Below, piece by piece: positions 258 through 39,718 of a stretch of DNA of 40,893 bases. Position 1 is the first letter of the stretch; each line of letters begins with the position of its first letter. A program made the translations under genes and the position numbers. The stretch comes from an uncultured Gammaproteobacteria bacterium (GTDB taxonomy: Bacteria > Patescibacteriota > Patescibacteriia > 2-12-FULL-60-25), in the NCBI GenBank assembly GCA_964513705.1, contig CAZENZ010000001.1, positions 1 to 40,893 of the forward strand. The letters run 5' to 3'. Below the pieces are notes generated by a model. That model was given only the letters and a program-made list of their open reading frames with translations. It searched no databases and was not told the DNA's origin.

Positions 258-902
258 ATGGATCTTCCATCTTCGAGCACATCTCTTCCTGTATCCGAAC
301 CGCCGCGTGATCGCCGCAAAGCGAGTATTAAGTTTGCATTAGAGCTCCTTCAGATCTTGGCGATTTCGCTCGCCATTATCATTCCTGTTCGTTACTTCCT
401 TATTCAACCGTTCTACGTGAAGGGGGCGAGCATGGAGCCGAATTTCTTCGATCACGAATATCTCATCATCGATGAGCTGAGTTATCGTCTGAATGATCCT
501 CAGCGTGGCGACATCGTTGTTTTTAAGTATCCAAAAGATCCGACCCAGTATTTCATTAAGCGCGTGATTGGCATGCCTGAGGAGACGGTTGAAATCATTG
601 ATGGCAAGGTTCGTATCTACAATAAAGAGCATCCAAATGGGTTTTTTCTCGATGAAACTGGCTACATCGACGGCGTCTTTACGAGTAGTCGTCAGATCCA
701 GCCACTCAAGAAAGGTCAGTACTATCTGATGGGAGACAATCGTCCGGCGAGCTTGGATTCTCGTATTTTTGGTCCGGTGGAGCGTGACTTTATTGTGGGG
801 AAGGTTTTGTTACGTGGTTATCCGGTTGATCGTTGGAAAGTCTTTAAGTCGTTTACCTATCCCGCACCGTCCGCGACGCATAGCTCGACAACTGCCTCAT
901 AA
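258..902 (+). CDS. lepB: Signal peptidase I (S26 family)
   Basis: N-terminal TM helix, then the catalytic Ser box GASMEPNF. Also KRVIGMPEETVEI (Lys box) and GDNRPASLDSR, the classic LepB boxes. Confidence 0.9.
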   Translation: MDLPSSSTSLPVSEPPRDRRKASIKFALELLQILAISLAIIIPVRYFLIQPFYVKGASMEPNFFDHEYLIIDELSYRLNDPQRGDIVVFKYPKDPTQYFIKRVIGMPEETVEIIDGKVRIYNKEHPNGFFLDETGYIDGVFTSSRQIQPLKKGQYYLMGDNRPASLDSRIFGPVERDFIVGKVLLRGYPVDRWKVFKSFTYPAPSATHSSTTAS

Positions 903-2380: not shown

Positions 2381-2407
2381 GACGGTGTTCTGATTTTCGC
2401 GTAGGAT
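2379..2407 (+). promoter_or_regulatory. Sigma70-like promoter for rpsU-yqeY (and possibly the downstream locus)
   Basis: TTGACG (2379-2384), a 17-nt spacer, then TAGGAT (2402-2407). An AAGGAG Shine-Dalgarno sits at 2455-2460, 8 nt before the rpsU ATG at 2469. Confidence 0.45.
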
Positions 2408-2468
2408 GGATCTCGACATTCGTGGCAGTTTAGCCCCGGTGATCCTCATATAGAAAGGAGCGTGTCTT

Positions 2469-2720
2469 ATGGCCGAAGTGAAACGTAAGAAAGGTGAAGC
2501 GTTTGATGCCTTGTTGCGTCGTTTTCAGCGTCGCCACCAGGAGAGTGGAAAGAACATTGAAGTCAAACGTCGTCGTTTTCACGCGAAGGCAGTTAATGAA
2601 AACCGTCGCCGTGAGAGTGCGCTGTACCGTGTCACGAAGCGCAACAAGCTAACGTATCTTTTGAAGACCGGACAGGTCCAAGAAGATGCTCGCCGTCCTT
2701 CACACCGTAAATCATCATAA
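2469..2720 (+). CDS. rpsU: 30S ribosomal protein S21
   Basis: Small, very basic protein. VKRKKGEAFDALLRRFQRR...RRRFHAKAV...ENRRRE is the typical S21 pattern, and a strong SD lies upstream. Confidence 0.85.
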   Translation: MAEVKRKKGEAFDALLRRFQRRHQESGKNIEVKRRRFHAKAVNENRRRESALYRVTKRNKLTYLLKTGQVQEDARRPSHRKSS

Positions 2721-2722
2721 CG

Positions 2723-3160
2723 ATGACTATCCTCGAACGGATTGATGCTGACTTTAAAGAGGCGATGAAAACCAAAGATGAACTGGCATTGTCCGTTCTT
2801 CGCTTGGTCAGAACCGCTTTAAAGAATAAGCAGATCGATCTTGGTCACGCGCCTGATCAGGCGGAGACTGAACAAGTCTTACGCACCATGATCAAACAGT
2901 ACCAGGATGCGTTAACTGATTTCTCTTCAGCTGGTCGACAAGACCTGGTCGAGCGTCAGCAAAAGGAAATCGATCTCATCGCTGTGTATCTTCCACCGCC
3001 ACTGTCTGCCGAAGATCTTCGAAAGATTGTTCACGAGGCTCTCGCCGCGTCGGACATCAAGGAAGTTGGTCGTGCAATGGGGGTGGCGATGAAGGCGGTG
3101 AATGGCCGAGCGGATGCCAAAGACGTTCGTCCACTGGTCGAGAGTTACTTTCACCCGTAA
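2723..3160 (+). CDS. yqeY: GatB/YqeY-domain protein
   Basis: The N-terminus ILERIDADFKEAMKTKDELALSVLRLVRTALKNKQID and the 145-aa length are typical of the YqeY family (PF09424). It sits directly after rpsU, as in many Firmicutes and CPR genomes. Confidence 0.85.
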   Translation: MTILERIDADFKEAMKTKDELALSVLRLVRTALKNKQIDLGHAPDQAETEQVLRTMIKQYQDALTDFSSAGRQDLVERQQKEIDLIAVYLPPPLSAEDLRKIVHEALAASDIKEVGRAMGVAMKAVNGRADAKDVRPLVESYFHP

Positions 3161-3211
3161 ACTGTTCTTGTAGAGTCCGTGTCCCTTTGAATCCCAACAT
3201 CTTTCTTTCCC

Positions 3212-5146
3212 ATGCTTGAGAAAGGTTGCAGGAGCGTCACAGCCGCTATGTCAGCACCCGTACGATTATTCGCCCGGGTGTTGCTAGCGGCTGTGTTCGT
3301 GCTCGCGCTTGTTTGGACGTTGCCCGCGACCGTCCACGCGCAATCTGCCCCAGCCCCCGACGCAGCGGCTCAGTTGAGTGATGCGGCGACCGCCGCTGGT
3401 GTCGATGGATCGGTGTCGCTCATGACGCTGATTGGTCGTATCATAAACGTGATTTTCGGATTCTTGGGGGTGATTTTGCTTGGGTATATTTTGTACGCGG
3501 GATACCTGTGGATGACGGCACAGGGCGATCCGAAACAGGTCCAAACAGCAAAAGACACCATTCGTAATGCCATTATTGGATTGGTCATCTTTGCTTCTTC
3601 GTTTGCGATTGTGAGTTTTATTCTTGCGCAGCTTGCGGGAGTTGCGACCGGTGAAGGGTTATTTGGAACTGGAGGGGGTGATGACTTGGGATTGAGCGGA
3701 TTCCCTGATCGTGCTGGTGCGTTGGGCGATGTCATTCGTGATGTTTATCCAATGCCTGGTTCACGTGATGTCCCACGCAACACCAGCATCATGGTGACAT
3801 TTGCGCAACCGATCAAAATCGATTCGTTTATTCGTGGTTATGACGATCATGGTACGCCGGGTGATTTGAGCGACGATGTTGCAACGAGTACGCGTATTGG
3901 GCTGAACACGGATAATATTCGCATTTATCGCACTTCTGAAGGACGCACGCGTGCGCTTACAACGGAGCAAGTTCGTGTGCGCTTTACCCCAGATCGTCTG
4001 ACATTCGTGATGCGTCCAGTTGAGTATCTTGGGAGTTCGGTCGAGCCACAAGACTACACGGTTGAACTTACGGGTGGTCCAACGGGGATCAAACTGGAAG
4101 ATGGATCGGCGGTATTTCAGGGTCGTGCGTCGCGTGGATATCGTTGGGCTTTCCAAGTTTCAACGGTAGTAGATCTCACCCCGCCAAAAGTAGTGAGTGC
4201 GATTCCTGCCTCCGGTGGAAGATATGCGCCAAATATCATCGTCCAGGTCAACTTCAATGAAGCAGTTGATCCGACGAGCGCGGCTGGGCTTGTGCGTGAT
4301 GGTGGAGCGGGCTTCGATAACATTGAAGTCTCTGCTCGACCGTTGGCTGGAGGCGCTTCAGTTCGTCCCGCGGGTGAATTCAAAGTTTCGAATGCCTACA
4401 CCACGGTTGAGTTCATGACGAACTTGGCCTGTGGAGTGAATAGCTGCGGTCGACAAATCTTCTGTCTGCCATCGGATTCCGCGATTCGTGTGGATGTGAA
4501 AGCGGCGACATTGGAAACAGCAAGTAGTTCACAGGCAGCGATTGTACGTGGGTTATATGATGGAGTTGTAGATGTCGCGAACAACTCACTCGATGGAAAT
4601 GCTAATGATCGTGCGCAGGGTCCACCGGCTGATAACTACACCTATAACTTTACAACGCTCACGGATCCCGATCGAAGTGCGCCGTTCATTCGAGCCTTTG
4701 TGCCGGCGCCAGATACGGGACTCATCCCGGTAGATCAGATTCCGTCGGCTGATTTTAATGGGATCCTTCAGGCATCTACTGTGAACTCGGGGAATATCAA
4801 ATTATTGTTGAATGAGCCACCAACCGATACGTTCTGGTTCCGTCCACGTATGGTGAACGTCGTAGCAGGGCTGCCAGTAACGATTGGTCAGCCGGCTTCA
4901 TCCAGTCGTGCTTTGATTGACCATCGTGTCTACGCTGCCGCAACACCACGGTTTGCGCCGGAGTACTATCCACAGTTTGGTTCAGGCGTGCAGAATATCT
5001 ATCAGAACTGCTTCCATCCAACGTCGTCCGATAACTCAACAAGTGAATGTCGTGGAACGCCGGATCGGCCAAACTGTTGCTTTGTGGAAGGTGTTCCGAC
5101 GCCAAGTGCGAGCGCTTGCCCTTATCCTAATCCTTCACGGCCATGA
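3212..5146 (+). CDS. Exported protein: signal peptide + T4SS-pilin-like module + Gly linker + Big_5/SbsA-type Ig-like domains + Cys-containing C-terminal region
   Basis: The likely true start is ATG 3248, with AGGAG at 3230-3234, giving MSAPVRLFARVLLAAVFVLALVWTLPATVHA|QS. The pilin-like module is LIGRIINVIFGFLGVILLGYILYAGYLWMTAQGDPKQVQTAKDTIRNAIIGLVIFASSFAIVSFIL. Ig-like segments carry the Big_5 signature (YPMPGSRDVPRNTSIMVTFAQPIKIDSF; SAIPASGGRYAPNIIVQVNFNEAVDPTS). The stop overlaps the next start (ATGA at 5143-5146). Confidence 0.85.
   Translation: MLEKGCRSVTAAMSAPVRLFARVLLAAVFVLALVWTLPATVHAQSAPAPDAAAQLSDAATAAGVDGSVSLMTLIGRIINVIFGFLGVILLGYILYAGYLWMTAQGDPKQVQTAKDTIRNAIIGLVIFASSFAIVSFILAQLAGVATGEGLFGTGGGDDLGLSGFPDRAGALGDVIRDVYPMPGSRDVPRNTSIMVTFAQPIKIDSFIRGYDDHGTPGDLSDDVATSTRIGLNTDNIRIYRTSEGRTRALTTEQVRVRFTPDRLTFVMRPVEYLGSSVEPQDYTVELTGGPTGIKLEDGSAVFQGRASRGYRWAFQVSTVVDLTPPKVVSAIPASGGRYAPNIIVQVNFNEAVDPTSAAGLVRDGGAGFDNIEVSARPLAGGASVRPAGEFKVSNAYTTVEFMTNLACGVNSCGRQIFCLPSDSAIRVDVKAATLETASSSQAAIVRGLYDGVVDVANNSLDGNANDRAQGPPADNYTYNFTTLTDPDRSAPFIRAFVPAPDTGLIPVDQIPSADFNGILQASTVNSGNIKLLLNEPPTDTFWFRPRMVNVVAGLPVTIGQPASSSRALIDHRVYAAATPRFAPEYYPQFGSGVQNIYQNCFHPTSSDNSTSECRGTPDRPNCCFVEGVPTPSASACPYPNPSRP
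3422..3640 (+). other. T4SS-pilin-like (TrbC/VirB2-type) two-helix module of the 644-aa protein
   Basis: Two hydrophobic helices flank a short polar loop, YAG(Y/F)LWMTAxGD...KAxKTIRNAIIGL. This matches my memory of Pfam T4SS_pilin (PF18895), which is common in CPR genomes. Confidence 0.6.
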
Positions 5147-8100
5147 ACTTTCGTCGCCTTTTCTGTTTGTTGGGGCTAGTCCTCGCCATAGGCGGGGTTT
5201 TAGCCTTTTTGCCGGCGACACCGGTCATGGCTCAGGTGGATGCTGGATTTCAGGAGGTTGGAGCCGCCGCACAGCTGGGCACAGCTGATCCAAGAATTAT
5301 CGCTGCGCGTATCATTAATATTTTCTTGGGAACGCTTGGTACGATTCTGTTGTGTCTGGTGTTGTATGCGGGGTTTCTCTGGATGACGGCGGGTGGTGAT
5401 GCGGAGAGAGTAGAAAAAGCCCAGAAGACGATTCGCAATGCGATTATTGGGCTCATTATCATCGTGTGTTCCTGGGGATTCGTTACTTTCATTTTGAATA
5501 AGTTACTCGATGCAACGCGCGGAAGTGGGGGATTTGTTGCGACGAGTGATAACGGAGGAGGCGGTGGCGAATTAGGTGCAGCCGGTGGATCATTAGCGTT
5601 TAATGTTCGCTCGATCACGCCGTCTGGACCGATCCGTATTCGCAATGCGGAAGTGCGTTTCTTGTTGAGCCGTGAAGTTTTGGCGAGTTCTGCGACGAGC
5701 TCGATCACCGTTGTTCGTGCCTCGGATGAGCAGCCGGTCGAAGGTACAGTTACGGTGGCGGATAGTTTGGTGACGTTTGTTCCAACTCAAGCCTGTCCTG
5801 CTCCTAACGGAAACCGTAAGTGTTTTGCTGAAAATACCGATTACATTGCGCGCGTTGGACGGGGCTTACGCTCACGTTCAGGGCTCACGGTTGCTTGTGG
5901 GAGAACGGCGCCGCCATGTGAGGGGCGGTTCCGTACGGGGAGCTTGGTAGACGTAAGTTCGCCAAATTCCGCTATCACAAATCCACTCGATGGGCAGGGA
6001 ATTCCTCTGGGAGATACGGTACGTGTCACCGTTCGTTCCAGGGACGATGGAGGTATCTCCATCACAGAGGTGTTAGTGGATGGTCGCATGATCGGTCGTG
6101 ATGCGGCGACTGCTACTACCACTCCTCTTGAATATGACGCGACCGTGAACTGGGATACGCGTGGAGTTGCAACTGGTACGCATCGCATCGAAGCCCGGGT
6201 GTTCGATATCGATTCAAACAGTGTGACGACCACCCCGATTACGGTGGCTGTGCGTCCACGAAGTTATTTCAATGGCGTTCAAGATAATGGGGCTCCTGAA
6301 GTTGGTTGTGGTGGTCCTGGTCAGCCATTGTGTGTGGGGAGCGCTTGTACGACGGGTCGTTCTTGTTTGAGTGGTCTGTGCGAAGGGGGCGTATGTCGTG
6401 CGCGTCCTGAAACAGAAACAGGATGTGGCGGTCCTGGGCAGCTTGCCTGTATTGGGGCTGTCTGTACGCGTGGAGATGGTTGTTTGAGCGGACGGTGTGA
6501 AGGCGGTATTTGTCGCGGGCGAGGTGAAACGGGTGTCGACTGTGGGGGCGCAGGAGGTGGCGCGTGTGCCGGAGCGATGTGTACGCGTGGAGTCGATTGT
6601 GCAAGTGGTTTGTGTGTCGCTGGACGATGTATCGAGCAGCCAATTATTGGATCGTTCAATCCTGTAAATGGTCGCCCTGGTACCTATGTCACGATTAGTG
6701 GGGTGAATTTTGGAACTACCACCGGTCAGGTGACGTTTGGTGGCCGTCTAGCAACTGCGCCAGCCTCCTGCGGATCATCGACGGCTTTCTGGTCGCCGAC
6801 GCAGATTGTGGTGGCTGTTCCAGAAGGGGCGACTACTAGCACGATTCAGGTGACGCATGCCACGAATCGCATGACGGACGCCACGAATGACGAACGTGGT
6901 CCGCGTTTGGCTGATTTCGTAGTAAATGGTGTGGCACGTCCGGGGTTGTGTGTCATTCGTCCAGGAACCGGAACGGTCGGTGATCGCTCGCGTTTGGCGG
7001 TGGCTGGCGTGAACCTGGGTAGTACCGCGGGGCGATTGTTTTTCAACGATCATGATGTGGCGATTAGTGCCTGGCGTCCAACGGGTGTGGATCTGACAGC
7101 GCCACTTGTCCCACCGGGTGCCTATTCGGTCCGTGCTCGTATTGGAGAGCTGGAATCAAATCCGGTTGGTTTTCATTTTAACGATCGCGTCATTACCGCG
7201 CCTCCGATTATTGATCAGCTGCGTCCGGCGACTGGTACGGTTGGATCGTATGTCACGCTGCTTGGTCGAAACTTTGGAAGTGGCGGTCGTGTGTTCTTTC
7301 GCAATCCGTTGACCAACGCCATTGGTGAGGCGGATACGCGCTTCCCGGCGCAGTGTGGAAGCACTTTCTGGGCGGATACATCTGTGATGATCAAGGTGCC
7401 ACGTGCGTTGCGTGGCGGATTGGGGGAGGAGCAGGCGGTGCGTGGAGGGGCATACGAAATTTATTTGCAGCGTGATGGGATTACGCAGAGTAATCGTGTT
7501 CCATTTACGGTATTTGATGGTGCGCCTGGCCCAGGTGTGTGTTCTATTCAGCCAATTGCGGGTCCGGTTGGAACGGGAGTCACGATTTATGGTGAGCGGT
7601 TTGGTTCAGTGGTCGGTGCCGTATCCTTTGCAGGGACCACGTCCTCGCGTCCTTTAGCGTTCTTGTCGAGTGAAAGCTGGCGCGATGGAGAGATTCGTAC
7701 GCGTGTGCCAACCGGTGCGTTGACAGGCGGAGTGCGCGTTACGGTGGCCGGTCAAGACTCGAATGATGCTTTTTTCTCGGTAGCGAACTGTGTTAGTACG
7801 CCGGGTATTTGTGGACCTTCCCTTGCCTGTTGTCCGGACGGAAGCTGCGCGGTGGCTGGTACTTGCCGCGCGTTGGGAGTGGCTACGAGTACTTTTGCCT
7901 GGAGATCGTCAACCGGACGGTTGTATCAGTCACCACGTGTGGTGGAAGAGTGTAATAACGAATTACCACCTTCTCCAAGCCCACGGAGCCTTTCGACCTG
8001 TGTGAATGCTCAGGCAGTTGTACGCTTTACGACACATATTGAAGCTTCGACGATTAATCCGAGTAATGTGATTATCCGTCGCTGTACCGGAAGAACCGGC

Positions 8101-16146: not shown

Positions 16147-17091
16147 ATGGACCTTCAATCACCCGTCAATCTTCCAACGCAGCCAGCGCCTGCCTCGCCA
16201 CCGGTACCACCGATTAACTCTCCAGTACCTCCACCGATTCAGGCGATGCCAAGCGCGCCGGCGGCTATGCCGAGCGCTGCTGCGGATGATATGTTTTCGG
16301 GAGTAGATAAGGTTCCCGCTCCTTCTCCGATGTCTGCGCCACAGCCAATGTCTGCGCCTGTTCCTCCGATCGTTGCGAGCCAGGCTCCGATGCCTGCGAC
16401 TCCGGCAGCGCCTTCTCCTATGGCGCCACAGCGTGTGTTATCTCCTTTACCGGAGCCGCATCATCCACCGGTGTTGCACTACGTGTTGATTGCCTTGGCA
16501 GTAGTTGCGGTGTTGGGTGTGATTGCGGGAGGGGTTTGGTTTTTCGCCATTCGCCGTCCAGCTCAGCAGGTGATGGAGGCGTTGCCAGTTGCACCGGTTG
16601 CGACGTCAACGAATGATGCTATGACACCTTCTTCGGCTGCACCGATGGTTCCAGCGGATGAGCCTGTTGGAGGTACGACGGAATTCGGTGAGCCAGAAGA
16701 AATTCCTTCCAAGCCAGTCGTGACGCCTCCAGAGGGCGCCACGGTTCCACTGCCATCTTCGATTGATCCAAATGGTGTAGGACTGGGAGCCCCGACTTCA
16801 GCCACGGCAGATCAGGGTACGCCGCAGCCTGCCCCTGTTCAACCAGCTCAACCGGTTGATCAAGATGCGGATGGTCTGTCAGACGCGCGTGAAATCGAGT
16901 TAGGAACGAATCCAGCGCTCGCAGATACGGATAGCGATGGACTCACGGATGGAGATGAAGTACTAAAGCATCGAACCAACCCTCTTGTTCCAGATACGGA
17001 TGGTGATGCATATCCTGATGGGGTCGAGGTGCAAAAAGGCTTTAACCCACTTGGTCCAGGTAAGTGCGCAAATCCATCGTGTACGTTGTAG
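16147..17091 (+). CDS. Single-pass membrane protein: Pro-rich N-terminal region, TM helix, TSP3 repeats, Cys-loop C-terminal tail
   Basis: The ~110-aa N-terminal region is Pro/Ala/Met-rich (MSAPQPMSAPVPP...). TM helix: VLHYVLIALAVVAVLGVIAGGVWFFAI. TSP3 repeats: DQDADGLSDARE, DTDSDGLTDGDE and DTDGDAYPDGVE. The protein ends GFNPLGPGKCANPSCTL. Confidence 0.8.
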   Translation: MDLQSPVNLPTQPAPASPPVPPINSPVPPPIQAMPSAPAAMPSAAADDMFSGVDKVPAPSPMSAPQPMSAPVPPIVASQAPMPATPAAPSPMAPQRVLSPLPEPHHPPVLHYVLIALAVVAVLGVIAGGVWFFAIRRPAQQVMEALPVAPVATSTNDAMTPSSAAPMVPADEPVGGTTEFGEPEEIPSKPVVTPPEGATVPLPSSIDPNGVGLGAPTSATADQGTPQPAPVQPAQPVDQDADGLSDAREIELGTNPALADTDSDGLTDGDEVLKHRTNPLVPDTDGDAYPDGVEVQKGFNPLGPGKCANPSCTL

Positions 17092-17109
17092 AATTTTTTC
17101 TTTGTTCGT

Positions 17110-18525
17110 ATGGCACTTGCACCTTCTTCATCATCTCCTACTGCAGCCGGAGTGGCTGTCAAAAAAATGCCTGAGATCATCACGATCCCAGAGCAGTTCT
17201 ATGGAGTTGCCTTGAAATTGAAGGCGCTCACTTCCGCGGAAAAAGATGAGGCGGCACGTGTGCCGCCTCCGGCGCCTGCTGCTCCGAATCCAGCTGCCTT
17301 GATCCGTCCACCAGAAGCGCGTCGCACACCATGGGCAATGATCGGTGTTGTCGCAGGGGTGATTGTGCTGAGTGGGGGAGGATTTGTGTACTTCAACCGA
17401 GACGCCTTGTTTCGTAAGCAGGTTCCGGTGGTGGTCGTCGAACCAAAACCGATTCCTCAGGCGCCAAGCGGCTTATCAGCGCTGCCCAGTCAGGGAGCGA
17501 TTTCCTTGGCATGGACAGATGCGGCGAGTAACGAGCAGGGCTATCACATTGAGCGCAAAGATGGGGCGCTTGATTCAACCAATCCGTTTACCCGTATTAC
17601 AACGTTGCCCGCGAATAGCAATGCGTTTATTGATGTGACCGTGCAGCCGAGCACCTCTTATAGTTATCATGTGATCGCGACGGGTGAAGGTGGGGATTCG
17701 GCTCCATCGAACGATATGTCGGCGACGACTCCAGCATTACCGACACCGGAAGTGCCCAAGCCAACTCTTCCACCTGGCGGTCTTGACACCGACTCGGACG
17801 GTCTGACCGATGTTGAAGAGTCTTTGTATAATACAAACGCACAAAGACCTGACAGTGATGGTGATCGTTTTCTCGATGGCAACGAAGTGTTTCACTTGTA
17901 TAATCCAGCGACGGCGGCACCTGGTAAGCTCCTTGAATCGGGTCTCGTTCGTTCTTTTACCGCGGCGAGTGGTTGGGTGATGTATGTTCCGGCATCATGG
18001 ACCACTGGACCTGATCCGAGCGATGCGACCCGTGTCTTGCTCGAGACGGGCAGGGGCGAACGTTTCATTGTTTCTGTTGAATCCAATCCATCGAAACAAG
18101 ACGTGATTCCATGGGTTTCGGCACGCATTAATCAGCCCGTAGAAGCGCTCGGTGAGTTCACTACAAAGGGTGGTTTGCGCGGGGTGTATGCTCCTGATCG
18201 TATGCAAGCTTGGCTCGCCTGGGGGGATGCGGTGTTTCATATTACGTTCGATCTTCAGGCGCAGCCATTCGTCAACTTCCGCACGACCCTGGAAATGATG
18301 CTAAACTCTCTTGCGTTGAATGGAGCGGCGATTATTCCGACAACGCTTACCCCGTCTAACTCTGGCCCTGGATCGCTTTTGAATCTCCCGACGAGTTCAA
18401 CGCCAGATATGCTTTCCACGACCGCTACAACGACGGCCACTACTACAACAACGACAACACCGGTCACTGTAACCAATACAACCACCTCTACGCCGCCTGC
18501 GGCCAGCACTTCTACCACCCCATGA
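17110..18525 (+). CDS. Single-pass membrane protein: FN3 domain + TSP3 repeats + unassigned globular domain + Thr-rich tail
   Basis: TM helix: WAMIGVVAGVIVLSGGGFVYF. FN3 signature: PQAPSGLSALPSQGAISLAWTDAASNEQGYHIERKDG...YSYHVIATGEGGDSAPS. TSP3 repeats: DTDSDGLTDVEE and DSDGDRFLDGNE. The tail is TTATTTATTTTTTTPVTVTNTTTSTPP. The stop overlaps the ybeY start (ATGA at 18522-18525). Confidence 0.8.
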   Translation: MALAPSSSSPTAAGVAVKKMPEIITIPEQFYGVALKLKALTSAEKDEAARVPPPAPAAPNPAALIRPPEARRTPWAMIGVVAGVIVLSGGGFVYFNRDALFRKQVPVVVVEPKPIPQAPSGLSALPSQGAISLAWTDAASNEQGYHIERKDGALDSTNPFTRITTLPANSNAFIDVTVQPSTSYSYHVIATGEGGDSAPSNDMSATTPALPTPEVPKPTLPPGGLDTDSDGLTDVEESLYNTNAQRPDSDGDRFLDGNEVFHLYNPATAAPGKLLESGLVRSFTAASGWVMYVPASWTTGPDPSDATRVLLETGRGERFIVSVESNPSKQDVIPWVSARINQPVEALGEFTTKGGLRGVYAPDRMQAWLAWGDAVFHITFDLQAQPFVNFRTTLEMMLNSLALNGAAIIPTTLTPSNSGPGSLLNLPTSSTPDMLSTTATTTATTTTTTTPVTVTNTTTSTPPAASTSTTP

Positions 18526-33472: not shown

Positions 33473-33865
33473 TTAGTACTCATCCGCTTGGCGGTCCGCA
33501 TTGTCGGTCGCCATATTTATCGATCCATTTCCTTTGCCTTTGAATTCATTTTTCCAAAGGGGTGTTCCATCTAGCTGGAAGGCGTGTACGACTCCACCTG
33601 AAGTAACGTAGACCTGATCATGATCGATCAGGAGCGTGGGTGCTTGACCCAAGCCAGACAGCGGAACTTTTTTGATAACTGCCCCGGTTTTTGTATCTAC
33701 AACAAATAATTCTTGGCTTTCGCTGACGACATAGGCATGATTTTGGTGAATACAGAGCTGAGATCGTCCATTCCCAATCGTCGTTTCCCAAGCGGTTACA
33801 CCCGTTTTTGTGTCGAGTGCATAGAGCGTTCCACTGAGAGTGATGAAAAGAATAGAAGATGGCAT
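33473..33865 (-). CDS. Short PQQ-like beta-propeller repeat protein (130 aa; possibly a gene remnant)
   Basis: Repeats of the type TLYALDTKTGVTAWE / LFVVDTKTGAVIKKV / VVHAFQLDGTPLWKN. The start is set at ATG 33865, because the longer track ORF would overlap the divergent 33905 gene. Only about three blades are present and there is no signal peptide. Confidence 0.5.
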   Translation of the reverse strand: MPSSILFITLSGTLYALDTKTGVTAWETTIGNGRSQLCIHQNHAYVVSESQELFVVDTKTGAVIKKVPLSGLGQAPTLLIDHDQVYVTSGGVVHAFQLDGTPLWKNEFKGKGNGSINMATDNADRQADEY

Positions 33866-33904
33866 AGAATGAACAAACTTTACTGCATGATATACTAGGA
33901 GTCC

Positions 33905-35770
33905 ATGAAGCTCTTTGCGCCATGTTTGGCGGGATTTTTTGCGGCGTTCGTTTTCGTGCCTACGATTGTTCATGCCCGATCATTTACCGATGTCACGAAT
34001 TCAACCTACGAAAAAACCTACATCCAAGCCGTGCTAGAAAATGGCTGGATGAAGTCGCTTAGTGAAACGACCTTTGGATACGGCGTCGCAATCACGCCAG
34101 ATGAATGGCTCTACATGTTGATGTTTTTACGCACGAGCGATGCCTGCCCTGAGCTTGGCTTGGTGGCGAATCAGTATTGGACGTCCGAGAATATTCGCGC
34201 CTGTTTGTCGGGGGCTGGTGTGCCTGTTATGACGGCGCGTCCAGATCAGGTGCGTCGTGATGAGGCAATGCAGCAACTCTTTGCGTTGCGTCGTCGGTCG
34301 TTTGCGTTCCAAGGTTTGCAAACAAAACCCGCTGGTTATATTGATCCAGCTGACCTTGGAGACGTTTCGGAGAAGCGTTTGGGCGCTATGATTGCCGGAG
34401 ATCGGTTAAAACTCATCTTCCGTACAAAGAATAAACTCACGCCTTCCTTACCGCTCTTGCGTGAAGATGCAACACTCGCTGTGTCGCGTTTTCTAGCTTG
34501 GGAAAAACAAGGTGGTACAGACAAAGAAACCAATGATCAGGTGCAAATCAGTAAAGAAGCCAAGCTCAATCATTGGCGTGATCTCGACACGGATATCTAT
34601 GTGCTTCAGGTAAAGACGGGTGGAGACACGGTTATTCATCCAATCGTGCCACGGCGTTCGTTTAACCCAGCGAAGGATCCTGCGAAAGAAAAGTTGCGCG
34701 ACGAATTTGTGTACCTGCCCGTGTCCGATCTTGCGAAGGAATCAGGCGCACTCGCCGCCATCAATGGCTCCTATTTTAATGTTGAATGGCCCTGGGGTGC
34801 CTTCGAAGATGTGGTGATCATGAAAGGAAAGACTCTTTTAGAGCGAACCGATCGCAGTACGTTTATTGTGTGTAAAGATGGGAAGTTATTCATCGGGAAA
34901 TATCAAAAGAAAAATCTAGACGCCATAAAGTGTCTTCCAGAACATGCGTTGGGCGCGGGGCCACTCTTCCTTGCGAATGGAGAGGTGCTGACAGAGAGCC
35001 AGAAGGAGGGGTTTGATGAGTACACGCAATGGGAGCGGCGTGTCGGAAAGAACGCGCGCACGGCGGTTGCCATCTCTGCAGATCGTAAAACGGCGTATCT
35101 TATTGTTGTCGCAGGGAAGTCCTATCCTGCGTTTGGACGCGGTGGTTCTTCGTTGGGTGCCTTTTTAAAAGATAAGTATCCGGATATTGCGTGGGCTATG
35201 ATGTATGACGGCGGAACGTCCTCGGCGCTTTATGCGAAGGGGGAGTTGCTCGTTGGATCAGGTGTGAGCGGAGAGGATACAGAGCGTGCTGTTGTTTCGG
35301 CACTGGGGATCTTCTCAAAGAAAGCAGAAGATCAAGCGTTGAAGCAGTTTAAAAAGGATCAAGTGAAGCATTGGGATAATGAGACCACTAGTATTAAGGT
35401 GGAGAAGCCTAAACTCGCTTTTGAATGGACTGATGAGAAGCTTCTGAAAATTGTAAACGACAAAATGTCAGGTCTAAAGATCACGCGCCGCGAAAAAAGG
35501 CATGAGCGAGGCTGGAACATCCCACTCGAATTGCATGTGATTGATGCAAAGCGAGAGACGGACGTAGACATTATTACATTATTATCGTTCGTGCCTGACG
35601 CTCAAAAACCAGATCTCAAAACGTTTGATGTGCTTACGACGCGACCGACCGGTGTCGTGTTTGGTGATGCGACGGGAAGGGCATGGTTTTACTACGCGAA
35701 AGATCAACAATTGTCTCCAGCAAAATTCAAAGCGCCTCCGAAGGCTGCCGTAAAGAAAGCCAAGAAGTAG
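33905..35770 (+). CDS. Secreted phosphodiester glycosidase-family protein (NAGPA/DUF2233) with an SLH-like N-terminal segment
   Basis: Signal peptide: MKLFAPCLAGFFAAFVFVPTIVHA|RS. An SLH-like segment, FTDVTNSTYEKTYIQAVLENGWMK, follows. NAGPA motifs: AAINGSYFN, GAGPLFLANGEV, RTAVAISADRKTAYLIVVAG and MMYDGGTSSALY. The C-terminus is Lys-rich. Confidence 0.75.
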   Translation: MKLFAPCLAGFFAAFVFVPTIVHARSFTDVTNSTYEKTYIQAVLENGWMKSLSETTFGYGVAITPDEWLYMLMFLRTSDACPELGLVANQYWTSENIRACLSGAGVPVMTARPDQVRRDEAMQQLFALRRRSFAFQGLQTKPAGYIDPADLGDVSEKRLGAMIAGDRLKLIFRTKNKLTPSLPLLREDATLAVSRFLAWEKQGGTDKETNDQVQISKEAKLNHWRDLDTDIYVLQVKTGGDTVIHPIVPRRSFNPAKDPAKEKLRDEFVYLPVSDLAKESGALAAINGSYFNVEWPWGAFEDVVIMKGKTLLERTDRSTFIVCKDGKLFIGKYQKKNLDAIKCLPEHALGAGPLFLANGEVLTESQKEGFDEYTQWERRVGKNARTAVAISADRKTAYLIVVAGKSYPAFGRGGSSLGAFLKDKYPDIAWAMMYDGGTSSALYAKGELLVGSGVSGEDTERAVVSALGIFSKKAEDQALKQFKKDQVKHWDNETTSIKVEKPKLAFEWTDEKLLKIVNDKMSGLKITRREKRHERGWNIPLELHVIDAKRETDVDIITLLSFVPDAQKPDLKTFDVLTTRPTGVVFGDATGRAWFYYAKDQQLSPAKFKAPPKAAVKKAKK

Positions 35771-39141: not shown

Positions 39142-39624
39142 TCAAGAATATTTCTCCCGTAACCATTCAGATACATATGTTCCGTACCTTTCTCGCGTCC
39201 TTTGGGGGACATGCTCGTATGCTCCGATGATGCCTCGACAGATTGCGGTTCCGCATTTGCACGCAAGTCGCCAGTCGCTGTCTTCGGTCATGTCGTAGTC
39301 CCAAGTTAGTTCTTCGCCACGCTTGATAGGTTTCATGGTAACCAGGGTGGATGTGCCTCGGATGCCACAATTCGGATCGCAGGAGTGGTTAATGTAGCGG
39401 GCGAATCCGCGACTCTCTTTCCATGTATGCTCACCGATTTGAATTGCATGATCTGCAATGTCTTTTGGGAGATCTGTGCATTTTTGTGCCTGAAAAATCT
39501 CACCATCAAATTCAGCGATCACGGTGTCTTGGGCGATGTCTTCAATAGCGTATAAGGCTTTACCAAAGCCTTCACGCTCACCAATCCGAATATTTGGGTT
39601 ATCCATATGGGTAGTGTAATCCAT
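39142..39624 (-). CDS. SET-domain protein-lysine methyltransferase with a post-SET Cys cluster
   Basis: FARYINHSCDPNC (the NHSC motif), ELTWDY and CKCGTAIC (CxCx4C post-SET). The start is uncertain: GTG 39642, ATG 39624 or ATG 39606. Confidence 0.8.
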   Translation of the reverse strand: MDYTTHMDNPNIRIGEREGFGKALYAIEDIAQDTVIAEFDGEIFQAQKCTDLPKDIADHAIQIGEHTWKESRGFARYINHSCDPNCGIRGTSTLVTMKPIKRGEELTWDYDMTEDSDWRLACKCGTAICRGIIGAYEHVPQRTRERYGTYVSEWLREKYS

Positions 39625-39718
39625 TAAAAACACGACGCCCACCTTTGGCAGGTGACGCCGCGGGTGGGGATTGCGTGTGGCAGGACTGCCCGGAGGTGGG
39701 TTGTCGCGGCGCGCTGGC

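Follow-up and report, generated by a model that had tools for sequence, protein, structure and literature searches.

A giant cysteine-rich protein with a VirB2-like pilin module at a conserved locus of Patescibacteria

The locus and the giant gene

The stretch of DNA analysed here (the window) is contig CAZENZ010000001.1 of assembly GCA_964513705.1, 40,893 nucleotides in length. An uninterrupted ATG-to-stop frame on its plus strand (5143..15483) encodes a protein of 3,446 amino acids (aa), in the following referred to as the giant. It is preceded by the gene for a 644-aa paralog, pilin644, the stop codon of which overlaps the start codon of the giant as ATGA (5143-5146), and followed by the genes for three membrane proteins (Table 1); the overlap and the tight gene spacing point to an operon-like arrangement with translational coupling of the pair. 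The giant is probably a conserved, Sec-exported surface protein of Patescibacteria of the Uhrbacteria type, anchored by a VirB2-like hairpin and forming a disulfide-stabilised fibril or adhesin.

Both the intact 10.3-kb frame and the extreme cysteine richness, which a preliminary description of the window had noted without an exact count, are borne out: the giant contains 171 Cys (4.96% of its residues), 168 of them outside the first 135 residues and 3 inside, with clusters in aa 400-500, 1400-1740 and 2400-3075. A frame of this length might be a chimeric concatenation of repeats or correspond to no real gene, considering that the window is a metagenome-type contig and that modules are repeated within the giant. 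The sequence of the window contains no N, and DNA-level searches revealed no near-identical repeats within the gene, but one trivial 12-nucleotide tandem and one family of 42-nucleotide units of at most 74% identity. The repeats of the protein are therefore old and diverged, and an assembler had no cause to concatenate or collapse them. In addition, collinear orthologs of the same length exist in ~50 independent assemblies, one of them a complete genome and another at chromosome level, and the Cys positions are strongly conserved among them. An assembly artefact or pseudogene at 5143..15483 is thus effectively refuted, its residual probability being negligible.

Conservation of the gene pair

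A scan of GTDB species genomes with an alignment of ~620-aa pilin proteins of the pilin644 type (pilin~620) returned at least 440 relatives, of which 82 loci were fetched; all synteny counts refer to these. In 65 of the 82 loci, the pilin~620 gene is immediately succeeded by an open frame of 1,200 aa or more, and approximately 50 of these 65 frames are 2,900-3,500 aa long with a Cys content of 4-5.6%. The orthologs, which stem from ~50 species-level genomes, are collinear with the giant of the window at 25-72% identity, and the assemblies that bear them include records titled ‘complete genome’ and ‘chromosome’. Two loci (L001 and L002) show the same arrangement as the window: the order signal peptidase (SPase), histidyl-tRNA synthetase (HisRS), small open reading frame (ORF), YqeY, pilin~620, giant is kept in a 1.08-Mb contig and in GCA_041660225.1, where the giants measure 3,483 and 3,637 aa, respectively. 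Ribosomal protein S21 and YqeY are found upstream in 70-71 of the 82 loci. The conserved unit is thus a gene pair downstream of S21-YqeY, a ~600-650-aa pilin-Ig protein followed by a collinear, Cys-rich giant of 2,900-3,500 aa. Further 3', relatives of the membrane proteins with thrombospondin type 3 (TSP3) repeats were detected by tblastn in 21 loci, wherever the fetched DNA extends far enough.

In an alignment of 35 complete orthologs, 111 of the giant's 171 Cys are shared by 80% of the sequences or more. The giant has 67% identity to that of its closest relative (L003), compared to 89-92% for HisRS, SPase, S21 and YqeY; faster evolution than that of the housekeeping neighbours is as expected for an exposed protein. 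All named homologs are Patescibacteria, several of them Candidatus Uhrbacteria (Parcubacteria group). The giant gene is real, old, vertically inherited and faster-evolving than its neighbours, and what had initially appeared to be an idiosyncratic mosaic proved to be a vertically conserved, syntenic family of Uhrbacteria-type Patescibacteria.

Such conservation could also mean that the giant is a structural component of the envelope, i.e., a single-copy spacer or scaffold (S-layer-like or a wall-spanning fibril) acting with the TSP3 proteins in cell-envelope architecture or division. Its length of ~3,000-3,500 aa and its domain order are strikingly kept across the full range of identities; its place is fixed among SPase, HisRS, S21 and YqeY upstream and YbeY, diacylglycerol kinase (DAGK), FtsA and FtsZ downstream; and the TSP3 membrane proteins are conserved alongside. 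However, streamlined genomes often show housekeeping synteny, from which no shared function need follow, the giant evolves much faster than its neighbours, and stalks of Ig, TIG and Cys-rich repeats are typical of adhesins and receptors. A purely structural role thus seems unlikely, if worth serious consideration.

Two further observations concern the family as a whole. Many of the metagenome-assembled genome records derived from ENA that carry the locus (L003, L004, L005, L011 and others) are titled ‘uncultured Gammaproteobacteria bacterium’, which, for a patescibacterial locus, looks like a systematic mislabel. Furthermore, the giant is depleted of Lys (0.84% versus 7.6% Arg). Lys is also low (1.4-1.6%) in the co-located surface proteins (3212-5146 and 15484-17091); the cytoplasmic proteins of the same window contain 4-9% at similar GC. 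Below 3% Lys is found in 27 of the 35 aligned orthologs, many of which are low in Arg, too.

The pilin module and its relatives

According to hydropathy, the giant has exactly three hydrophobic segments, at approximately aa 2-32, 52-86 and 96-123, and none past aa 123. A30 and Q31 are near-invariant (alignment A4), an AxAQ-like site occurs in 102 of 145 family representatives, and AlphaFold2 (AF2) places a helix at aa 3-22 of the signal peptide; a class III prepilin site (G↓[FM]xxxE) is absent from the first 80 residues. The type IV secretion system (T4SS) pilin family PF18895 (gathering score 26.6) matches aa 62-117 with 32.6 bits in the full-length protein and with 37.5 bits when aa 1-135 are searched, and in an AF2 model of aa 1-370 the helices of the hairpin span aa 50-82 and 87-125 at a predicted local distance difference test (pLDDT) of ~80-86, with a disordered linker leading on to the Ig domain. 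The succession of signal peptide and TrbC/VirB2-like pilin module, as it had been read from the translation, is thereby supported. NF045849 of NCBIfam, a pilin-like family of Mycoplasma integrative conjugative elements, reaches E 9e-7 with the giant, below its cut-off. PF04956 is not matched by the giant itself, whereas close relatives of the module (P0003 and P0162) pass it above the gathering score. With the model of aa 1-370, Foldseek returned Ig-like matches only, the Ig domain dominating and pilin structures not being reached, and a profile of the N-terminal pilin module found no PDB sequence.

Across the 35 orthologs, the bin with the pilin module ranks among the best conserved of the giant (0.58 identity versus an average of ~0.3). 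The module is ~55-60% identical between the giant and pilin644, which scores 38.1-42.1 bits for T4SS_pilin and 46.4 bits for Big_5 (family alignment A3, 22 sequences). The mature giant comprises ~3,400 aa, compared to tens of residues for a typical VirB2 pilin subunit.

When aa 1-135 were compared by phmmer with 1.84 billion cluster representatives, 25,464 matched at E ≤ 1e-3 and 5,780 at E ≤ 1e-10. The best 148 of the 25,464 matches to the pilin module fall into orthologs of the giant (35), apparent fragments of giants (24), proteins of the pilin~620 type (21), stand-alone pilins of less than 200 aa (125-200 aa; 19) and others (49), many of which carry 2-8 pilin modules in tandem; 40 of these 148 are at least 2,000 aa long. 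The combination of a pilin module with a large ectodomain is thus common in metagenomic data. The source annotations of the family read ‘hypothetical’, ‘pilin’ or ‘DUF4215 domain-containing’.

In the literature, VirB2-like pilins are described as widespread in Patescibacteria, and a pilin array of Southlakia is essential (PMC12102498, PMC10633639); a preprint names PF18895 as the leading domain in structure clusters specific to freshwater. The papers on T4SS of Patescibacteria describe small VirB2-like pilins and no fusions to giant ectodomains (PMC12102498, PMC10633639, PMC11665869). The searchable literature yielded no characterised adhesin of this architecture, in agreement with the preliminary description; as far as that literature can be searched, the architecture is abundant in data but undescribed and uncharacterised.

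As for the tandem arrangements, single polypeptides with 5-8 T4SS_pilin modules were found (P0162, 820 aa, P0161, P0164, P0181, P0204 and P0259). P0162 matches PF18895 in 8 stretches with 223 bits and also TrbC PF04956, and many proteins of ~230-290 aa carry two modules. For a pilus subunit, covalent chaining of this kind is unusual.

The relationship to pilins raises the possibility that the giant is a modular VirB2-type pilin: a T4SS-like machine would recognise the module and polymerise it with small VirB2-like pilins, such that the giant and pilin644 would be minor or tip subunits showing their adhesive ectodomains on a conjugative-type pilus. This reading is live but a minority one, and we deem it improbable. 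It would account for the conservation of the module and for its similarity between giant and pilin644; stand-alone proteins of 125-200 aa are among the best matches, and close relatives pass the Pfam threshold of TrbC/VirB2. The topology would probably be permissive, too. In solved conjugative pili, it is the inter-helix loop that faces the lumen; the H-pilin has its N and C termini linked to each other, a residue of the joined region being shown on the exterior surface (PMC12037004). Taken together with other solved conjugative pili, this suggests that the termini are oriented outward, in which case C-terminal cargo would be topologically allowed. Moreover, both T4SS genes and pilins of the VirB2 type are widespread among Patescibacteria, the class ABY1 included (PMC12102498).

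Several observations stand against display on a pilus. No T4SS gene (VirB4, VirB6 or other) was found among the scanned ORFs of the window, nor in the 10 kb that precede the pair in L001 and L002. A cargo of 3,300 aa on every subunit is sterically incompatible with a homopolymer. The family proteins with 2-8 covalently linked modules suggest that the module can also be a plain membrane-embedded unit, and a VirB2 pilus has neither structural nor experimental support in the clade of the giant. That the giant and pilin644 are the first cargo-carrying VirB2-type pilins, which a T4SS-like machine would insert into a conjugative-type pilus or place at its tip, thus appears doubtful. If true, a long, disulfide-stiffened adhesive filament would mediate host recognition by ultra-small cells, which would constitute a new way to build a pilus adhesin and provide the pilin/T4SS system of Patescibacteria, essential and puzzling, with a concrete function.

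Architecture of the ectodomain

Table 1. Features of the giant and of the adjacent genes; positions refer to the window, all on the plus strand.
Feature	Position	Strand	Residues	Basis or remark
pilin644 (signal peptide, VirB2-like pilin module, Big_5 Ig domains)	3212..5146	+	644 aa	upstream paralog
Signal peptide	5143..5235	+	1-31	ends in conserved A-x-A↓Q site (VMA↓Q)
VirB2/TrbC-type pilin module (PF18895)	5236..5517	+	32-125	two-helix hydrophobic hairpin, conserved YAGFLWMTAGGD loop motif
Gly-rich linker	5518..5592	+	126-150	sequence; AF2 pLDDT <50 over aa 124-150
Big_5 Ig-like domain, then Big_7	5593..6195	+	~151-270, 274-351	Pfam, AF2, Foldseek
Three tandem ~38-aa 6-Cys modules	6292..6642	+	384-500	read from sequence
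Four IPT/TIG domains	6640..7782	+	500-880	Pfam TIG tiles, in register
Small 6-Cys cluster	7789..7866	+	883-908	sequence; Cys conserved ~0.6 across orthologs
Two homologous units, each Big_5 plus further domain	7930..9402	+	930-1180, 1185-1420	Big_5, hhalign
Cys-rich repeat block 1, myxobacterial type (CGNG..GE.CD)	9382..10362	+	~1414-1740	density, motifs
Third Big_5-containing unit	10570..11592	+	1810-2150	Big_5 tile, hhalign
~300-aa module	11740..12627	+	~2200-2495	DAIGVRI..NP.H..WY..QGF..VDGYEA.RDG ... WPSW
Cys-rich repeat block 2	12808..14367	+	~2556-3075	TIGR02232; weakly DUF4215
CarboxypepD_reg-like (prealbumin-fold) domain	14383..14583	+	3081-3147	PF13620 tile
C-terminal ~290 aa	14620..15483	+	3160-3446	low conservation, also between orthologs
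Three membrane proteins, single-pass, with TSP3 repeats (bacterial, calcium-binding type)	15484..18525	+	215/314/471 aa	tightly packed after giant

Essentially the whole domain order first read from the translation is supported by hidden Markov model searches, AF2 and sequence (Table 1): models for PF18895, Big_5, Big_7, TIG, TIGR02232 and PF13620 match, and DUF4215, which had also been expected, stays below its cut-off. No lectin or enzyme domain was found in the giant.

The ectodomain begins with Ig-like domains. Big_5 scores 21.7 bits as an isolated tile at aa 154-248, below the gathering score of 23.6; AF2 predicts a beta-sandwich at aa 150-270 (pLDDT >90 over aa 150-250), to which the Ig-like Foldseek matches of the N-terminal model correspond. 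Big_7 follows with 32.9 bits, and further copies of Big_5 occur at aa 945-1036 and ~1832-1880, the latter with 28.9 bits. Profile-profile comparison by hhalign, using sub-alignments of the 35 orthologs, relates the units at aa 930-1180 and 1185-1420 to each other (probability 99.7%, E 1e-26) and the third Big_5 unit to both (98.6-98.8%); each of the three opens with a Big_5-like domain. The region of ~800 aa that had been left unassigned in the preliminary description is therefore largely resolved into this third unit and the ~300-aa module; the C-terminal ~290 aa retain that status, as there is neither a Pfam match for aa 3160-3446 nor an hhalign relation to other parts of the giant, and across the 35 orthologs their identity is 0.06-0.26 at an occupancy of 0.2-0.8.

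The three 6-Cys modules are plain in the sequence. The third is kept in most orthologs, the Cys between residues 467 and 496 being conserved at ≥0.97 among the 35. The first two (window 6292-6528, aa 384-461) are missing from almost all orthologs (conservation of Cys 389-457, 0.0), and they are a recent lineage-specific duplication in an otherwise rigidly conserved architecture. The TIG tiles score, in order, 40, 15, 21.2 and 26.9 bits, three of them above the gathering score of 20.9. TIG is a generic Ig fold that is also found in bacteria. An assignment of ‘eukaryote-like’ modules to the giant is hence weak: PDB sequence matches of the TIG region are confined to TIG-like domains of bacterial cyclodextrin glycosyltransferase, and the only library match of the 6-Cys modules is a sub-threshold one to Dickkopf (E 0.04).

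The Cys-rich repeats are of the myxobacterial type. TIGR02232 matches with 26.5 bits (cut-off 20.8) in two stretches, best at aa 2859-2888 in block 2; DUF4215 reaches 23.5-24 bits in this block. Eight copies of the motif CG[DN]G..GE.CD are distributed over the two blocks, at aa 1518, 1582 and 1686 in block 1 and at aa 2624, 2658, 2861, 2892 and 2940 in block 2. Block 1 contains 9-12 Cys per 100 aa, most of them conserved at 0.94, and includes the diverged DNA repeat family D1; in block 2, the Cys are mostly conserved at 0.97-1.0. For the domain at aa 3081-3147, PF13620 scores 36.9 bits on the isolated tile (gathering score 32.3) and SdrD_B 28 bits, below its gathering score.

A recurrent ~300-aa module

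The module at aa ~2200-2495 is 36-38% identical to the N-terminal domain of independent proteins of 1,000-1,200 aa (P0027-P0029). A profile search detected it in 207 proteins at E ≤ 1e-3, most of which are 300-650 aa long and stem from Patescibacteria, and in none of the 207 has it a Pfam assignment. In many stand-alone secreted proteins (>200), it forms the N-terminal domain. It is also among the best-conserved parts of the giant (0.58 identity across orthologs in the bin 2201-2250). A word-index search with aa 1740-2560 had found only 4 proteins and missed true orthologs, which were recovered via synteny.

AF2 gave a confident model of this module (70-sequence alignment; pLDDT 75, predicted template modelling score 0.75, 168 residues >90), and no structural neighbour emerged: Foldseek gave nothing significant in the PDB (best E 0.09) or among the viral structures of BFVD (E 0.006, template modelling score ≤0.14), and the profile of the module matched neither PDB sequences nor NCBIfam. 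The module is a recurrent extracytoplasmic domain with a fold without known neighbour, which is apparently confined to Patescibacteria. A PLDc_2 match within it (20.3 bits, below the gathering score) was rejected, as there is no invariant His, the HKD region is not covered and Foldseek lends no support.

Two loci with stand-alone module proteins (L083, 8001-9227, and L084, 8001-9176) share the context HtrA-PfkB-Fpg-[module protein]-DUF212-YceG-L10-L12. These are housekeeping neighbours only and give no functional clue.

Proposed mechanism and comparison with known systems

The surface protein that we favour could operate in the following manner: Upon export, signal peptidase would cleave at A↓Q, and the hairpin would insert into the cytoplasmic membrane with both ends outside, i.e., in VirB2 topology. 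With both ends outside, the C-terminal ectodomain would extend from the cell in the form of a long fibril, in which the Cys-rich blocks and small knots may be stiffened by disulfides and the Ig and TIG units may act as spacers. The fibril would be ~100 nm long if roughly 30 small domains were extended. Its likeliest role would be to touch or adhere to a host cell or a substrate, or to serve as a structural part of the cell envelope. The conservation of the pilin module equals that of the best ectodomain blocks, which suggests that the module is more than a passive anchor; it may dock to partner proteins with pilin modules or to an assembly machine.

Several points weigh against an anchored fibril or adhesin. 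The presumed disulfides are deduced from the conservation of Cys, and adhesion from the types of domains. Foldseek with the N-terminal model brought out no likeness of the hairpin to solved conjugative pilins (VirB2, TraA, TrhA), all matches belonging to the Ig part, and no homolog of the giant is characterised. Fast-changing, host-specific adhesins do not typically keep their length and domain order so strictly throughout a deep clade, and a structural role in the envelope would fit this equally well.

The giant combines two known kinds of proteins, the VirB2-like pilin-module proteins of Patescibacteria and giant modular surface proteins. Four systems lend themselves to comparison: (i) the VirB2/TrbC-like pilins of Patescibacteria (e.g., the arrays next to the T4SS in Saccharibacteria such as Southlakia epibionticum) stem from the same phylum and share PF18895, a signal peptide and the hairpin, and tandem paralogs are likewise found here, pilin644 being followed by the giant (PMC12102498, PMC10633639). 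The described pilins are small and arrayed near virB4, whereas here the module bears 3,300 aa (~500 aa in the paralog) and the pair adjoins no T4SS gene. (ii) The giant adhesins of the repeats-in-toxin (RTX) type, such as LapA and SiiE, and of the LPXTG type likewise comprise multiple thousands of residues with many Ig-like stalk domains and a likely role in contact. In contrast to the former, the giant has no GGxGxD motif, no relevant Pfam match and no type I secretion signal; in contrast to the latter, its only LPxTG-like string is internal (aa 1308), the C-terminus reading ...GGIDWDMPRY. Unlike both, it has an N-terminal pilin-like anchor, is very Cys-rich and shows a conserved domain order instead of variable arrays of identical repeats. 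(iii) Myxobacterial proteins with Cys-rich repeats (TIGR02232/TIGR04201, e.g., the outer-membrane exchange receptor TraA) share the acidic CG[DN]G..GE.CD repeats, presumably disulfide-bonded stalks in either case. These proteins belong to another phylum and use another anchor; in the giant, no MYXO-CTERM or PA14-like head was found, and the repeats make up only two blocks of a larger architecture. (iv) In modular type IV pilins (PilB and PilC of Streptococcus sanguinis), an N-terminal pilin module bears a bulky functional C-terminal part. The concept may be the same by analogy, but the superfamily differs: the giant lacks the class III signal (G↓FxxxE) and has a VirB2-type module, a Sec/SPase I site and a cargo approximately ten times larger.

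Patescibacteria account for much of the diversity of bacteria, and a life attached to other cells is assumed for them; to our knowledge, the mode of contact is unknown for most of them outside a few cultured Saccharibacteria. Among the large surface structures of a major uncultured clade, that of the locus is one of the best conserved. The interest of the giant lies in its deep conservation, its unusual anchor and the unrecognised ~300-aa module, and the locus offers concrete targets for cryo-electron tomography, immunolabelling and structural work. It also raises the question of whether the VirB2-like module serves Patescibacteria in building pili or, more generally, in anchoring surface proteins to the membrane.

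Neighbouring genes

The giant is surrounded by housekeeping genes of a small genome. Upstream of the pair are genes for signal peptidase I, HisRS, a small basic protein of 83 aa (2469-2720), which we take to be S21, and YqeY; the downstream genes in the window include YbeY, DAGK, FtsA, FtsZ, NrdR, HtrA and pyruvate kinase. The membrane proteins that directly follow the giant match TSP3_bac with 77.3 and 49.3 bits, next to a weak fn3 match, and two of the three share the C-terminal sequence NPLGPG(R/K)CA(R/N)P(D/S)C.

No Dsb-like gene was found among the scanned ORFs of the window, as the preliminary description had stated; as evidence, this absence from 41 kb carries no weight since such genes need not be linked.

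The signal peptidase I gene (family S26; window 258-902) is located four genes upstream of the pair, with a relative in 58 of the 82 loci. VirB2-type pilins are processed by enzymes of the S26 family, and TraF of RP4, which cyclises TrbC, is a homolog of signal peptidases (PMC12037004); the gene at 258-902 is probably just the housekeeping LepB.

Farther downstream, a gene for a 621-aa protein with a NAGPA phosphodiester-glycosidase domain (33905-35770, plus strand) overlaps at its start with the end of a 166-aa ORF on the opposite strand (33473-33973, minus strand); this ORF matches PQQ_2/beta-propeller only in part and may have been mis-called or be the remnant of a gene. A SET-domain protein of 166 aa (PF00856, 50.8 bits) is encoded at 39142-39642 on the minus strand.

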